DNA of 48,110 bases. Origin: Candidatus Giovannonibacteria bacterium RIFOXYD1_FULL_48_21 (lineage in GTDB: Bacteria; Patescibacteriota; Minisyncoccia; JACPKW01; UBA11713). Shown piece by piece: positions 4,866-47,786 of the stretch (positions are counted from its first letter, which is position 1; each line of letters begins with the position of its first letter). The position numbers and the translations under genes are program-made. The stretch is taken from positions 1-48,110 of the forward strand of contig MFIU01000001.1 of assembly GCA_001778985.1 (NCBI GenBank). Direction: 5' to 3'. Below the pieces are notes generated by a model. The model searched no databases. It saw only the letters and a list, made by a program, of their open reading frames with translations, and was not told where the DNA came from.

Positions 4866-5516
4866 ATGGTAATAACTTACTACGGGGCTTCGTGCTTCAA
4901 AGTGGAATCAGGAAAGCTGGCCGTGGCCTTTGACCCGCCCTCCAAAGAATCGGAGCTGAAGCCGCCCCGTTTTTCAGCCGACGTCGTCCTGGTGAGCCAC
5001 AATCATCCCCGCCACAACGGCTTCCAAGAGCTTTCTGGCGAGCCTTTTTTAATTTCCGGGCCGGGCGAGTACGAAGTTAAAGGACTTTCCGTAAACGGCC
5101 TACCTTCTTTTCACGACAAAGAAAAAGGCGCCAAGCGCGGAACGAACACCATTTATCTCGTGGAGCTTGAAGAGGTCAAACTCTGCCATCTCGGAGATTT
5201 GGGCGCCCCGGAGCTCGACGCCGAAATCCTGGAGAAAATTGGGCAAGTGGACGTTCTCTTTGTTCCTTCCGGCGGCGAAGATGTCCTCGACCCGGCCGAG
5301 GCCGCTAAAGTCGTGAACCTCCTGGAGCCGAAAATCGTAATCCCCATGCACTACCAATTGCCCAAAACGCCTCAGAAGGGCGCTAAGATTGAAGAATTTT
5401 TGCACGAACTCGGCGAAAAAGAAATAAAACCGGAAGAAAAATTTACTTTCAAGAAAAAAGAGCTTCCGGAAGAAGGAACCAAAGTCGTGGTTTTAAAACC
5501 GGCCATAAGTTTATGA
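4866..5516 (+). CDS. MBL-fold metallo-hydrolase (Lactamase_B_3-like)
   Basis: SHNHPRHN, HLGDLG and IPMHY motifs. Confidence 0.85.
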   Translation: MVITYYGASCFKVESGKLAVAFDPPSKESELKPPRFSADVVLVSHNHPRHNGFQELSGEPFLISGPGEYEVKGLSVNGLPSFHDKEKGAKRGTNTIYLVELEEVKLCHLGDLGAPELDAEILEKIGQVDVLFVPSGGEDVLDPAEAAKVVNLLEPKIVIPMHYQLPKTPQKGAKIEEFLHELGEKEIKPEEKFTFKKKELPEEGTKVVVLKPAISL

Positions 5517-5617
5517 ACCCCGTTAGAAAATCTACAAGCCAAATAATTTCTGAAGTAGAACCTTATGCGCTAATGGTCGTATCCTCAATTACCAGCCTAA
5601 AGATTTTCTAACGGGGT
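5517..5617. mobile_element. MITE/REPIN-like element, CCCGTTAGAAA family
   Basis: Perfect 17-bp inverted repeat ACCCCGTTAGAAAATCT (5517-5533) / AGATTTTCTAACGGGGT (5601-5617) around 67 nt; TGAA at both junctions. Confidence 0.8.
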
Positions 5618-5870
5618 GAATTTTTTCGATAAATTGGAGGAAATCAGGCAAAAACCGGTCGAAACCCGGCGGAGAATTTTAGTATTGACCCTTTTTCTAT
5701 CGATGGCGCTCGTAATCGGCCTCTGGTTAAGTCTTCTGAAGTTCGGAGGTACTGCCGCTAAATCCGCCTCAGCCGGCCCCCGGCCCTGGGAGGTCATCAA
5801 AGGAACTTTCCGGGCTTCCACCCAAGAGCTTAAAAAAACTTTACCGGCTGAAACTTATCTAAAAGAATAA
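5616..5870 (+). CDS. Hypothetical single-TM protein
   Basis: 84-aa ORF directly upstream of gyrA; its GTG start lies at the element end. Confidence 0.7.
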   Translation: MNFFDKLEEIRQKPVETRRRILVLTLFLSMALVIGLWLSLLKFGGTAAKSASAGPRPWEVIKGTFRASTQELKKTLPAETYLKE

Positions 5871-37769: not shown

Positions 37770-38024
37770 TTAAACCCATTCGCCTTTTATCAGTTTTTCT
37801 TTTTTGACTCGACTCCAGTGTTTAATTTGCGCTTCGCGTTTTCTGGCTTCGGATTTATTATACAGTGGCAGGGATTTATAAACAAGCGAGAATGGTCCTT
37901 GCTGTCTAGCCATCTGCGAACCCTTGCCTAAATTGTGTTTAATTATTCTTTGATCGGGGTCTGGTGTGATTCCAGTATAGTAATAACCACTTCCAGCTTT
38001 AGCGATATAAACATACCAATTCAT
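37770..38024 (-). CDS. GIY-YIG nuclease (UPF0213/YhbQ-like)
   Basis: WYVYI...YYTGIT...R...HN.G...ARKREAQIK.WSR.KK; likely start ATG 38024. Confidence 0.88.
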   Translation of the reverse strand: MNWYVYIAKAGSGYYYTGITPDPDQRIIKHNLGKGSQMARQQGPFSLVYKSLPLYNKSEARKREAQIKHWSRVKKEKLIKGEWV

Positions 38025-38039
38025 TTCTATATTGTAGCT

Positions 38040-38129
38040 CTTCGACAAACTCAGAGTACTTCGACTTGAAGTGTTTACACTGAGCGAGCCTTCGACTGGC
38101 TCAGGCCAAGACGAAGGTGAGTCGAAGTG
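38040..38129. repeat. Stacked REP-like elements between the GIY-YIG gene and tRNA-Phe
   Basis: CTTCGACAAACTCAG, CTTCGACTGGCTCAG, ACTGAGCGAG...GTCGAAGTG; 25 nt identical to 12425-12449. Confidence 0.75.
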
Positions 38130-38201
38130 TGCCGCGGGTCAGAATCGAACTGACGACTCCTCGCTCTTCAGGCGAGAGCTCTGCCACTGAGCTACCGCGG
38201 C
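38130..38201 (-). tRNA. tRNA-Phe(GAA)
   Basis: CTCGC CT GAA GA GCGAG. Confidence 0.95.
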
Positions 38202-38268
38202 GCTAGAAAAAGTATAAGAAAAATTCTGTGGGCGCGCAAGGACTTGAACCTTGGACCTTCTCGGCTTG

Positions 38269-38376
38269 GCCCGTTAGAAATTTTTTGTGCGCGGTGAGAG
38301 ATTTGAACTCCCGACCCTCGCTGTGTAAAAGCGATGCTCTACCACTGAGCTAACCGCGCATATATTTCTAACGGGC
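38269..38376. mobile_element. CCCGTTAGAAA-family element carrying a tRNA-Val
   Basis: Perfect 13-bp inverted repeat GCCCGTTAGAAAT (38269-38281) / ATTTCTAACGGGC (38364-38376). Confidence 0.85.
38288..38359 (-). tRNA. tRNA-Val(TAC), nested inside the interrupted tRNA-Val
   Basis: Complete cloverleaf; TCGCT TT TAC AC AGCGA. Confidence 0.95.
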
Positions 38377-38428
38377 TGAATAAACGAGACGCTCTGCCGA
38401 CTGAGCTACGCGCCCATTTTTATTTTTG

Positions 38429-38500
38429 TCCCCTCGGGGGGAATTGAACCTCCATCTGCTCCTTAGAAGGGAGCCATTCTGTCCATTGAACTACGAGGGG
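38429..38500 (-). tRNA. tRNA-Arg(TCT)
   Basis: GCTCC CT TCT AA GGAGC; one A-C mismatch in the T stem. Confidence 0.9.
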
Positions 38501-38523
38501 CAGGCGAAACTATTCTAGCCGAT

Positions 38524-38799
38524 TTAGGAAGGGTCTTCAACCGGAACGTTCTCTTTGTAATTTTCAAAGTTGAGCCGCTTTTCCTTGAGCCGCTCCAAAA
38601 CTTTATCCAAGAGCTGGGTCTGGAGCGTCGTACCCTCTTGGGCGCCGAAAGAAGCTTCCGGCTTTCTAAGAAAAAATTTCCAGAAAATCCAGGCGTCAAA
38701 GAGCAGGACGATAAACAGAAATAAAATCAAAAACCACAAAAGACCGTTCCAATGGAATTTAATGCGGGGAATTTTGAATTTTAGGAAATTAAAATTCAT
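38524..38799 (-). CDS. Hypothetical single-TM protein of the pilus operon
   Basis: Overlaps the pilO-like gene; N-terminal TM. Confidence 0.7.
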   Translation of the reverse strand: MNFNFLKFKIPRIKFHWNGLLWFLILFLFIVLLFDAWIFWKFFLRKPEASFGAQEGTTLQTQLLDKVLERLKEKRLNFENYKENVPVEDPS

Positions 38800-45526: not shown

Positions 45527-47284
45527 TTATTCTCTCGTTACCCTTAAGACTTCTTCTATCGTGGTAATCCCCTGCACGGCTTTCGCGATGCCGTCTTCGA
45601 GCATAGTCATCATACCTTCTTCTTTGGCGCGCTTTTCAATGTCGTCCGAAGTGGCGTTCGCCATAATCAGCTGTTTGACTGATTCGGTCATCGCTAAAAC
45701 TTCATGAATCCCGATTCGCTCCTGATAGCCGTCCGGGCATTCGGAAGTTGGTTCGGGTTTGTAAAAATTAATCGAAGACCAGTCTTCGTCGGCTTTGATA
45801 AGCTTGTATTCTTTTAAAAATTTTAAAATCCGCTCCAAATCCACTTCTCGCGAAAGCTCCTTCAGCTCATTCTTGGAAAGTTTGAATGGTTTTCGTGATT
45901 TACAAAGCCGCCGGACCAGCCTTTGCCCCACAATCGCTGTCACGGTGGAAGCGATTAGAAAAGGCTCAACTTTCATATCCAAAAGTCTGGGCAAAGCTCC
46001 GGCCGCGGAGTTGGTATGAAGCGTGGAGAGAACCAGATGCCCGGTCAAGGCGGCGTTTATCGCTAAAGACGCGGTTTCGTTATCCCGAATCTCGCCGACC
46101 ATTATGATGTCCGGGTCCTGCCTGACGAGCGAACGGAGTCCGGTCGCGAAACTGAAACCAATTTCCGGTTTCACCTGGGTCTGGTTGACCCTGGGCATGC
46201 GGTATTCAATCGGGTCTTCAATCGTGGAAATGTTGACCTCCGGAACGTTCAAAATATCAAGGACGGTGTAGAGGGTCGTGGTTTTGCCGGAGCCGGTCGG
46301 GCCGGTGGCCAGCACCATGCCCACCGGTTTTTTAATCGCCCGGTGCAATCTTTCCAGACTCTCTCCGAAAAACCCCAAAGTTTCCAGGGTGAAACTTTTG
46401 GAATTTTCCACGAGAAGCCGGAGCGCGGCCTTCTCCCCCTCGCCCACCGGCAGGATGGAAACCCGGAACGAAATTTTCTCCTCCGGGGTTTCGATTTTAA
46501 ATCTGCCGTCCTGGGGCAATCTGTGCTCATCCAGTTTCAAATTGGAAAGCACTTTTATTCTGGCGATTATTCCCGGAGCGACCTGCTTGGGAAGGAGCAT
46601 GGCCTCGCGCAGAATGCCATCCACGCGATATCTCACCACCACCTCTTTTTCCTGGGGCTCGATGTGGATGTCCGAAGCTCGCTCCACGATGGCGTGGCGC
46701 AAAAGGGTGTCTACGATTCTTACGATCGGGAGGTCTTCGGCGACTTTCTTCAAATCTTCGGTCCCTACTTCCCCCTTGCCTTCCTCCACCGGAGTCGTCA
46801 CCAAAACATCCCGGGCTTCTTTTTTTATGATATCTCCAAACTCCGCTTCCAAAGAGCGCCGGTACTGCGAGAGCACATGCTTAATGGAGGATTTGGTGGT
46901 GAGGCGCGGCAGAATTTTCAGATTGGAAGTCTTTTTTATAAAATCAATTGTTTCCAGGTTCTCCGGATCCAGCATGGCCACCTCCAAATTATTTCCTGAT
47001 TTTTTGTAGGCCACGATATTGTGCGTGCGGGCAATCGGCTCGGGAATCATCCGCAAGGCTTCGTCTGAAATTTTTTCGTGCTCCAAATCCACGAAAGGAA
47101 TGCCCAAAATATAAGCCGCGAGCCGGGCGAAATCGTCCTCGGTAATTTTTCCCTCCTTTATCAGGACCTCGGCGAGGTCCTCGCCGCTTTTCTCCGCTTT
47201 TTTCTCGGCAGCTTCAAGAGACTTAGCGTCCAGAAGTTCCGCGTCCAGCAAAAAAGCCTTAAGCCTTTGTGGTTCAATTTTCAC
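45527..47284 (-). CDS. pilB: Type IV pilus/T2SS assembly ATPase PilB/GspE
   Basis: ASDIHIEP, PQDGR, GPTGSGKTTT, EDPIE, RQDPD, GHLV.STLH. Confidence 0.95.
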   Translation of the reverse strand: MKIEPQRLKAFLLDAELLDAKSLEAAEKKAEKSGEDLAEVLIKEGKITEDDFARLAAYILGIPFVDLEHEKISDEALRMIPEPIARTHNIVAYKKSGNNLEVAMLDPENLETIDFIKKTSNLKILPRLTTKSSIKHVLSQYRRSLEAEFGDIIKKEARDVLVTTPVEEGKGEVGTEDLKKVAEDLPIVRIVDTLLRHAIVERASDIHIEPQEKEVVVRYRVDGILREAMLLPKQVAPGIIARIKVLSNLKLDEHRLPQDGRFKIETPEEKISFRVSILPVGEGEKAALRLLVENSKSFTLETLGFFGESLERLHRAIKKPVGMVLATGPTGSGKTTTLYTVLDILNVPEVNISTIEDPIEYRMPRVNQTQVKPEIGFSFATGLRSLVRQDPDIIMVGEIRDNETASLAINAALTGHLVLSTLHTNSAAGALPRLLDMKVEPFLIASTVTAIVGQRLVRRLCKSRKPFKLSKNELKELSREVDLERILKFLKEYKLIKADEDWSSINFYKPEPTSECPDGYQERIGIHEVLAMTESVKQLIMANATSDDIEKRAKEEGMMTMLEDGIAKAVQGITTIEEVLRVTRE

Positions 47285-47411
47285 CCCGTTAGAAATAGTC
47301 CCGTTAGAAATCCAAAATGAGACCGTTTACTGCTGGTAATAAAAACTTTATTTGATGTTGATAGCATTCCAAAAAATTTAATTTCTAACGGGACGCGATT
47401 TCTAACGGGGT
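47283..47411. mobile_element. Two nested CCCGTTAGAAA-family elements
   Basis: Outer 14-bp IR 47283-47296/47398-47411; inner 14-bp IR 47298-47311/47381-47394 around 69 nt. Confidence 0.85.
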
Positions 47412-47786
47412 TCATTCCCCTTCAAGGATCCCCTTAACTTTTTTCACTATCTCCGGCAGAGAATAGTTGGCTTTTACGAGATAAGCCTTCACCCCGAAAG
47501 AGGAAGCTCGTTCAATATCCTGGGGGGTTTCCAGATTGGTAAGGATGATGACCGGGATGGTTTTAAGCTCGGGATTTTCCCGCATATCTTCCATAATCTT
47601 AAACCCGTGTTTTTTCGGCAAAACCAAATCCAAGATAATCAAATCCGGATGCTTTTCCTGAATTTGCCGAAACCCGGTTTCGCCGTCGTTCGAAACCGTG
47701 ACTTCCAATCCGGCCTGCCGCAGCGCCTCAGCCAGCTGGTTCGCCAAAGCGGTATCGTCTTCGACTACTAATATTTTTTTAGGCAT
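47412..47786 (-). CDS. Single-domain response regulator (receiver)
   Basis: ILVVEDD, PDLIILD..LP, LTN, YLVK. Confidence 0.92.
   Translation of the reverse strand: MPKKILVVEDDTALANQLAEALRQAGLEVTVSNDGETGFRQIQEKHPDLIILDLVLPKKHGFKIMEDMRENPELKTIPVIILTNLETPQDIERASSFGVKAYLVKANYSLPEIVKKVKGILEGE

Follow-up and report, generated by a model that had tools for sequence, protein, structure and literature searches.

A tRNA-Val(UAC) gene nested in the anticodon loop of a broken tRNA-Val gene: a repeat-bounded cassette and the probable replacement of a single-copy tRNA gene in a Patescibacteriota genome

The 48,110-nt stretch of DNA analyzed here (the window) is contig sequence MFIU01000001.1, positions 1 to 48,110, of Candidatus Giovannonibacteria bacterium RIFOXYD1_FULL_48_21 (assembly GCA_001778985.1; the source genome is called G000 below and its contigs C1 to C5). 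It contains a small cluster of tRNA genes, the middle one of which is a complete tRNA-Val(TAC) gene that lies inside the anticodon loop of a second, split tRNA-Val gene (Table 1; bare coordinates are those of the window). Direct reading of the minus strand from 38415 to 38229 gives a 35-nt tRNA 5' half, a 116-nt insert and a 36-nt tRNA 3' half, where the insert is composed, in this order, of the tetranucleotide TTCA, a 13-nt arm, the complete tRNA-Val(TAC), the second arm and CAAG. This nesting had been put forward in a first-pass annotation made from the letters alone and it is confirmed here, including the full pairing of the four outer stems (7, 4, 5 and 5 bp, all complementary) and the 82-nt interior between the arms. 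The predicted fold of the 187-nt RNA shows the outer acceptor, anticodon and T stems together with the 13-bp inverted-repeat helix and the inner tRNA. With a minimum free energy of -77.9 kcal/mol (z = -6.09), this fold is more stable than that of any of 200 shuffles. ARAGORN and Rfam both call the inner gene in the window and neither calls the outer one, nor does ARAGORN in its intron mode. Two extra predictions that this mode returned elsewhere in the genome, at C1:262030 (with a 380-nt 'intron') and at C5:2326 (51-nt), are poor cloverleaves within coding sequence and were judged spurious.

Table 1. Features of the nested locus, of related loci in the window and of related loci elsewhere in G000 (contig coordinates preceded by C1 to C4)
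Feature	Position	Strand	Evidence and remarks
tRNA-Arg(TCT), first gene of the cluster	38428..38500	-	ARAGORN; Rfam 63.1 bits
Promoter-like site TTGAAG-17-TAGAAT, upstream of tRNA-Arg	38512..38540	-	9/12 matches
Outer tRNA-Val(TAC) relic, 5' half (positions 1-35, end T32 T33 T34 A35)	38381..38415	-	35/35 identical to intact G003 gene; GGGCGCG TA GCTC AGTCGGC AGAGC G TCTCG TTTA (38415-38381)
Junction tetranucleotide TTCA, insert-derived, not in the intact gene	38377..38380	-	Sequence reading; G003 comparison
Inverted-repeat arm GCCCGTTAGAAAT, 13 nt	38364..38376	-	Sequence reading; motif count; fold
4-nt spacer ATAT, between arm GCCCGTTAGAAAT and inner tRNA	38360-38363	-	
Inner complete tRNA-Val(TAC)	38287..38359	-	ARAGORN; Rfam tRNA 71.8 bits
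5-nt spacer, between inner tRNA and arm ATTTCTAACGGGC	38282-38286	-	
Inverted-repeat arm ATTTCTAACGGGC, complementary to GCCCGTTAGAAAT	38269..38281	-	Sequence reading; motif count; fold
Junction tetranucleotide CAAG, insert-derived	38265..38268	-	Sequence reading; G003 comparison
Outer tRNA-Val(TAC) relic, 3' half (positions 38-73)	38229..38264	-	36/36 identical to intact G003 gene; C CGAGA AGGTC CAAGG TTCAAGT CCTTG CGCGCCC A (38264-38229)
tRNA-Phe(GAA), last gene of the cluster	38129..38201	-	ARAGORN; Rfam
84-aa GIY-YIG ORF (MNWYVYIAK...GEWV)	37770..38024	-	PF01541 at 37800-38021, 48.2 bits
Non-tRNA family member with 16-bp arms, between two genes	5518..5616		Direct TGAA at 5514-5517 and 5617-5620
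Two family members, one inside the other (inner 47300-47392)	47284..47410		Outer flanked by direct TTCA, 47280-47283 and 47411-47414
Pro(cgg) nest	C1:72193-72294		Same arms, relic of same amino-acid type
Thr(tgt) nest	C3:20954-21054		Same arms, relic of same amino-acid type
Thr(cgt) nest	C4:106333-106437		Same arms, relic of same amino-acid type
Six tRNA-adjacent GIY-YIG genes	C2:59525, C1:217956, C3:6578, C3:4233, C1:201807, C1:71839		

We searched the locus against 41 related genomes and ran ARAGORN on the loci that were returned. In a genome of the same family and another genus (G003; L011, c[1420-1495]) an uninterrupted tRNA-Val(TAC) gene was found, with the anticodon loop TTTACAC. This gene is equal to the outer 5' half, plus CA, plus the outer 3' half, and the halves match it at 71 of 71 positions. 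Thus, the outer gene was a tRNA-Val(TAC) with the loop TTTACAC, in which the 116-nt insert replaced C36 and A37. The valine identity of the outer gene, which the first-pass annotation had deduced from the body of the tRNA and the TA of the anticodon, is thereby borne out, and the relative at the same time provides the empty site. In other relatives either type of gene may hold the position: an outer-type Val(TAC) follows immediately after tRNA-Arg(TCT) in G008, an inner-type Val(TAC) does so in G004 and G006, and an inner-type Val(TAC) is located near tRNA-Phe in G005.

The nested locus is present in many groundwater and soil metagenome runs. The junctions were checked in four of these (X10, X11, X14 and X16, from three studies, none of them marked as a possible source), on the basis of Logan contigs and not of raw reads. 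A single 354-nt contig of X11 spans 38130-38483 with 0 differences and 0 gaps, and contig pieces of the three other runs cross each junction, again with 0 differences. Hence, the junctions are not an assembly artefact. A join that skips 38265-38380, as expected for the empty site, occurred in none of the four runs; such contigs drop rare variants and the absence of the empty site is therefore not shown. Runs that contain RNA carry at most 0.06 of the locus words.

It had also been claimed that simple excision cannot restore TTTACAC and that the inner gene probably replaces the outer one. The former holds, as C36 and A37 are gone: removal of the insert would leave TTTA+C, and no cut between TTTA and C regenerates the missing bases. 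The latter is supported by the inner gene being the only Val(TAC) copy among the 45 tRNA genes of G000 (ARAGORN, Rfam), by the decay of the equivalent outer genes in other nests (see below) and by the outcome of a search for a tRNA-splicing endonuclease. More specifically, the tRNA-intron endonuclease family PF01974 had 0 matches in G000, a genome scored 100% complete, where the same search was positive in four archaeal genomes. Moreover, no Rfam family other than tRNA, be it an intron or a ribozyme, was found in the window. The outer gene is a dead relic that excision cannot repair, and the inner gene is the sole source of tRNA-Val(UAC). The inner gene has the same orientation as the Arg-Val-Phe cluster, and we infer that it is transcribed from the cluster promoter and freed by RNase P and RNase Z. 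The promoter-like site upstream of tRNA-Arg is weak evidence in this respect, with 3 such sites in the searched region compared to a shuffle mean of 1.4. No second promoter-like site was found on the minus strand before the cluster, nor between the outer 5' half and the inner gene.

The cassette is one member of a family that is present in many copies and resembles the miniature inverted-repeat transposable elements (MITEs). The arm 11-mer CCCGTTAGAAA (at most 1 mismatch) occurs 8 times in the window, at 5519/5605, 38270/38365, 47285, 47300/47382 and 47399, where 1.39 copies are expected; 8 or more were seen in 0 of 100 shuffles. The pairs at 5.5 kb and 47.3 kb agree with the earlier assignment of these two sites to the same repeat family. 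The whole of G000 holds 59 copies of the 11-mer against 0 for a reversed control, and the 11-mer is found in 25 of the 41 related genomes, with up to 70 copies. About 35 arm pairs of G000 carry 4-bp direct repeats that covary between the two sides and are marks of insertion with target duplication. Among the non-tRNA members TGAA is the commonest of these repeats (TCAA, TTTA, TCTA, CAAG and CTCG also occur), and the interiors vary from 5 to ~275 nt. Many elements are positioned exactly on start codons, in the arrangement ATGAA[element]TGAA, in which the base before the second TGAA remakes ATG or GTG. In the rRNA region of C2 one element was found in the spacer between the 16S gene and tRNA-Ile, and none inside the 16S gene.

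A number of smaller observations concern the same family. The 105-nt non-tRNA members (C1:118351, 146988, 166264; C2:89221, 179681, 212365, and others) contain an open 38-codon frame, MNPVRNS...KFLTG*, whose end overlaps the next gene as ATGA/GTGA. They may have arisen from the nuclease gene described below by deletion, or they may be small translated leaders. Three identical 98-nt members lie within 1.6 kb of each other (G000 C1:151486, 151987 and 152973), pointing to copying in the very recent past or to a repeat array at this site. At C4:16998-17100 an element that has GGGCGCG on either side directly adjoins the 5' end of tRNA-Val(cac), and at C2:88776 a lone arm abuts the 5' end of tRNA-Ala(tgc). 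Such arrangements may represent steps towards the capture of cargo, or relics thereof.

The nested arrangement was found to recur, both within G000 and across its class. When a tRNA gene and its arms were removed in silico and the joined flanks were tested for a split tRNA, the flanks of 4 of the 45 G000 tRNA genes formed one: Val(tac), Pro(cgg), Thr(tgt) and Thr(cgt). Starting from candidate arm pairs, a joined-flank cloverleaf was obtained at 7 out of 128, six of which are at the four nest loci and one inside the tRNA-Val(cac) gene itself. A pattern consisting of an arm, a T-loop motif and an arm was scanned against 400 genomes of the class, next to a reversed control. It yielded 48 matches in 34 genomes, where the control yielded 0, and a tRNA lies between the arms in 25 of the 30 loci that were fetched. 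Together with the other three nests of G000 these 25 loci make up a set of 28 cassettes, the cargo of which is Pro (7), Ala(cgc) (6), Thr (6), Val (4), Arg(tct) (2), Gly (1), Ser (1) and Leu (1). Compared to a panel of 19 classes of G000 tRNAs, the best match of the flanks is the cognate amino-acid class in 18 of the 28 cassettes, and the cognate class comes second in 6 more. A cloverleaf across the joined flanks could be called in half of the set (14/28); the remainder is visibly decayed. Decay is seen in G000 as well, where the outer acceptor stem of the Thr(tgt) nest has 3 mismatches, and additional decayed Val nests are present in G026, G036, G033, G025 and G005. Both Arg(tct) nests are located in the T loop and not in the anticodon loop. 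The outer gene in two loci (L048 and L033) has an older arm immediately next to its 5' end, indicating that this gene was itself once cargo. The nesting is a class-wide, recurrent phenomenon.

Sequence identities suggest an origin of the cargo tRNA outside the lineage. Compared with the Val(TAC) genes of two other families (G023 and G014), the inner gene shows 92% and 90% identity; the values are 78-81% for inner-type genes within its family and 73% for the outer gene. For the pair G000 and G003, in which the outer halves are 100% identical, the tRNA-Arg genes are 77% and the tRNA-Phe genes 86% identical. Considering that the outer halves are identical while the neighboring tRNA genes have diverged, the insertion into the outer gene would be recent and Val genes would move between lineages. 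A similar contrast is found for the Thr(tgt) cassettes of G000 and G100, genomes of different families: the cassettes are 98% identical, the outer halves 75% and 68%. Selection on the cargo and decay of the relics both contribute to this contrast, which is therefore suggestive only.

The only protein-coding members of the family point to a candidate enzyme. The two longest members in G000 (C2:210490-210762 and C2:123973-124247) encode a GIY-YIG protein (PF01541), and in the intact copy the arms form the first and last codons of a 94-aa frame, MNPVRD...FLSLTG*. The protein has 5539 homologues at E <= 1e-5. The C-terminal end FLSLTG is present in all 17 homologues that were fetched and the N-terminus MNPV/A/K in 13 of them, the other four being annotated from an internal Met. 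All six genome loci with at least 63% identity (G000, G006, G016, G035, G010 and G017) are bounded by the arms. As a consequence, the tRNA cassettes can be regarded as small, cargo-loaded elements of this family, in which a GIY-YIG nuclease is the only protein encoded, and it is this nuclease that may move the elements. The arm-bounded 94-aa genes (C2:210485-210769, C2:123971-124247; L069-L073) were observed to sit exactly on host start codons. The frame of the element opens at the host ATG (ATGAAYCCCGTTAGAGAT = MNPVRD) and its TGA stop overlaps the regenerated host ATG or GTG, with TGAA duplicated on both sides. The gene looks like a selfish unit that borrows the translation start of its host and returns it by coupling.

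GIY-YIG genes are also found near tRNA genes. Of the ten small GIY-YIG genes in G000, six terminate either 0-10 nt ahead of a tRNA gene's 5' end or within that end (for Glu, Ser, Tyr, Trp, Leu and Ala; Table 1), and the same arrangement was observed with Gln in G030 and with Lys in G019 (L076 and L077). Possibly, these genes constitute a second kind of nuclease-tRNA module. A decayed second tRNA-Glu(ctc) is located at C2:59887-59941 (Rfam 28.6 bits, covering model positions 9-63). The functional Glu(ctc) gene precedes it by 55 nt and itself follows a GIY-YIG gene, so that in this case the replaced gene lies beside its successor and not around it. The 84-aa GIY-YIG ORF of the window is found ~105 nt downstream of tRNA-Phe and is not repeat-bounded; a link to the nest would be hypothetical. 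The spacer between tRNA-Phe and this ORF contains several GTCGAAG-like repeats, and a similar motif occurs upstream of the GIY-YIG gene at C1:72063. The 714-kb genome further encodes four Y1-transposase-like (PF01797) ORFs of 216-234 aa (C2:104091, C2:98478, C1:231411 and C2:154242), none of which adjoins any of the listed G000 arm copies.

We consider it very probable that the nest was formed at the DNA level, by insertion of a cargo-carrying mobile cassette that replaced the resident tRNA gene. The 116-bp cassette, in which a complete tRNA-Val(UAC) gene is set off by a short spacer from a 13-bp inverted-repeat arm on either side, would have entered the anticodon loop of the resident tRNA-Val(UAC) gene after A35, with removal of C36 and A37. 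Because each tRNA is single-copy and essential, a nest would survive only if cargo and target are cognate and co-oriented, and once the replacement has taken place the cargo could no longer be lost. On one account, elements would insert into exposed loops, of which events only the cognate and co-oriented ones would survive, neutral copies being lost from streamlined genomes. The replacement is well supported; the mechanism of insertion is not. At this locus there is no target duplication: the flanks are TTCA and CAAG, and two target bases are lost. The left-junction TTCA is also found in Val and Ala nests of other genomes. A target duplication of 4 bp or 2 bp, microhomology and a borrowed T-loop TTCAAG were each considered as a description of the junction, and none of them accounted for every nest; many of the junction stems were parsed by eye, as the automatic stem finder often chose the wrong ones.

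Several findings weigh against insertion of this kind. Unlike their non-tRNA relatives, the tRNA cassettes have no target duplication, and 0-4 bases of the loop are lost, on account of which they may insert by a different reaction. Conserved tetranucleotides are found beside the arms, TTCA/TGAA at one end (with variants CGAA, TAAA and TGAG) and in most nests CNNG at the other (CAAG/CTTG, CAGG, CGAG, CCGG, CACG, CCCG and CGCG). Among the cassettes examined none with tRNA cargo lies outside a tRNA gene, so that chance insertion followed by selection must invoke the loss of neutral copies. The number of arm copies shows no clear relation to the presence of close GIY-YIG homologues: G018 has 70 copies and a best GIY-YIG match of 39% identity, G006 has 0 copies and a match of 78%. 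The identity of the outer halves to the functional gene of another genus would also fit a constraint on these halves, the RNA ligase RtcB is encoded in G000, and the expression and processing of the inner gene are inferred only.

A refinement, which we regard as possible although rather unlikely, makes the replacement a targeted one. In that case a nuclease, most likely a small GIY-YIG protein, would cut the loops of single-copy resident tRNA genes, and repair of the break would copy in the repeat-bounded cassette, which brings a resistant foreign version of that tRNA gene. Cargo and target would in this way be matched by the mechanism itself, the cassette would owe its spread to becoming essential, and repeated rounds would leave nested relics. 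Such a drive could account for the restriction of the examined cassettes to tRNA genes, for the same junction (TTNA followed by TTCA) in the Val(TAC), Val(GAC) and Val(CAC) relics of G000, G026, G005, G033, G036 and G025, for the near-identical Thr(tgt) cassettes, which have the same junction as well, and for the serial nesting in L048 and L033. The position of the six small GIY-YIG genes at tRNA 5' ends adds some weight, as does the decayed tRNA-Glu(ctc) behind one of them. There is, moreover, a precedent in phage T4, where the free-standing homing endonuclease SegB, which is of the GIY-YIG type and located in the tRNA gene cluster, is tied to the preferential inheritance of tRNA genes (PMC2330249). 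However, that is a phage system based on gene conversion between co-infecting phages, with no known inverted repeats or nesting. Furthermore, the tRNA cassettes contain no nuclease gene, the GIY-YIG gene nearest to the nest (37770-38024) lacks the arms, and the higher identity of cassettes is also expected from selection on the cargo while the relics decay. The nest in L022 consists of non-identical isoacceptors, with an inner Val(CAC) in an outer gene that reads TTTA, and the anticodon stems of inner and outer genes are not consistently different.

Three further explanations were considered. If the second copy had originated on the spot, by local duplication of the resident gene with the repeat arising around the copy, the common isoacceptor and orientation of both genes would be accounted for; we hold this to be very unlikely, since the inner gene resembles a gene of another family far more than it does the outer gene (92% versus 73%), the arms are a pre-existing genome-wide and class-wide family and both allele types are found un-nested in relatives. 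Equally little speaks for an element that acts at the RNA level, with the 116 nt serving as an intron or the halves as a split tRNA, after the manner of archaeal bulge-helix-bulge introns or split tRNAs, so that the outer tRNA would still be made. It is true that the insert is in the anticodon loop and closed by a 13-bp helix, that the outer halves are pristine and that RtcB is available for ligation. Nevertheless, with C36 and A37 missing no cut-and-join yields a Val loop, no bulge-helix-bulge could be drawn at the junctions in our own reading of sequence and fold (an 8-nt/5-nt internal loop beside the 13-bp helix instead of two 3-nt bulges 4 bp apart), no splicing endonuclease was found in G000 and no Rfam intron or ribozyme in the window, the equivalent outer genes are decayed in 14 of the 28 cassettes and two Arg(tct) nests are in the T loop. 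This explanation is largely refuted and very improbable indeed. Group I introns do occur in the anticodon loops of bacterial tRNA genes and have the site of insertion in common with the nest. A group I intron was rejected here, as 116 nt is too short for the ribozyme, there is no Rfam match, excision does not restore the loop and the interior is a tRNA. In archaea, tRNA genes with introns are known, as are split and permuted ones (reviewed in PMC3978253). They resemble the nest in that the tRNA halves lie apart and a helix joins them. For the nest, such an archaeal-type arrangement was likewise rejected, since neither a bulge-helix-bulge nor a splicing endonuclease was found, the loop cannot be restored and outer genes decay. 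Finally, the chance that two Val tRNA genes were joined in an assembly chimera is practically negligible. Metagenome bins carry that risk in general, but the contigs from four other runs cross all junctions without difference, the 13-bp arms are shorter than assembly words, and three further nests are present in G000 and many in other genomes.

Among known mobile elements, the cassette comes close to a cargo-bearing MITE in the way it works and, in its outcome, to the islands that enter tRNA genes and restore them. MITEs and palindromic elements, such as the Correia elements of Neisseria and the Rickettsia palindromic elements, are short, bounded by inverted repeats and multi-copy, and produce short target duplications. 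They lack a transposase of their own, have variable interiors and are tolerated in or beside genes. The family described here is likewise short, inverted-repeat-bounded, multi-copy, variable in its interior and tolerated in or beside genes, and its non-tRNA members have short target duplications. In contrast to MITEs, its cargo can be a complete and functional tRNA gene, the cassette sits in the cognate tRNA gene and takes over the function thereof, the tRNA-cargo copies are without target duplication, and the only protein-coding members carry a 94-aa GIY-YIG nuclease instead of a known transposase. Certain phages and genomic islands use an integrase to enter tRNA genes, sometimes at the anticodon loop, and bring along sequence that preserves the function of the tRNA; they replace only the 3' part, via a shared core, and leave a direct repeat. 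In both systems a mobile element enters a tRNA gene and keeps the tRNA function alive. The cassette, however, supplies a whole independent gene, both halves of the old gene remain and there is no shared core. Neither an integrase nor a direct repeat of a tRNA part was found at the nest, and the sole PF00589 match (tyrosine recombinase) of G000 is far away at C1:77816-78289.

Elements with a preference for structural RNA genes have been reported in other settings. In eukaryotes, tRNA or snRNA genes are the specific insertion sites of the Dada DNA transposons, which, according to the abstract of the source, rely on the multicopy nature of the target (PMC8869645), whereas the target described here is single-copy and the element brings a replacement. 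The rRNA genes of Candidate Phyla Radiation (CPR) bacteria carry many insertions, some of which encode GIY-YIG proteins while many are short and belong to no intron class (PMC11270868, main text). These insertions share with the nests the kind of organism, the hits in structural RNA genes and, in some, the GIY-YIG proteins. They differ in being described for rRNA genes only: the string 'trna' occurs 0 times in the main text of that paper, the supplementary tables of which might list the same repeat. In the open-access full-text literature we found no nested bacterial tRNA genes, tRNA-cargo MITEs or arm-bounded GIY-YIG elements, and the replacement of single-copy tRNA genes by repeat-bounded cassettes with the same tRNA has apparently not been described.

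By way of cassette replacement, a foreign allele could take the place of an essential single-copy tRNA gene in a single step, with no intervening stage of redundancy. The nest in the window would represent an intermediate of this exchange, caught with both halves of the old gene still intact, and the process would explain the mosaic histories of tRNA genes in minimal genomes. For annotation it calls for caution, as relics and arms hide in tRNA clusters where pipelines see only the inner gene. In addition, a very large and uncharacterized family of ~94-aa GIY-YIG proteins becomes tied to a defined mobile DNA unit with ends and targets that can be tested. Should the targeting prove enzymatic, the cassette would be a natural case of a selfish element whose fixation follows from its taking the place of an essential RNA gene. 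If such a drive indeed operates, the tRNA genes of CPR bacteria would be horizontally mobile, self-fixing units and the host would never lose the cassette.

With respect to the tRNA repertoire of G000, tRNA-Asn is the only isotype missing among the 45 tRNAs, and none was found when it was sought behind repeat elements; as the genome is in 5 contigs, the gene may be unassembled. A tRNA-Ile(TAT) gene is present, and the genes with a CAT anticodon number only two.

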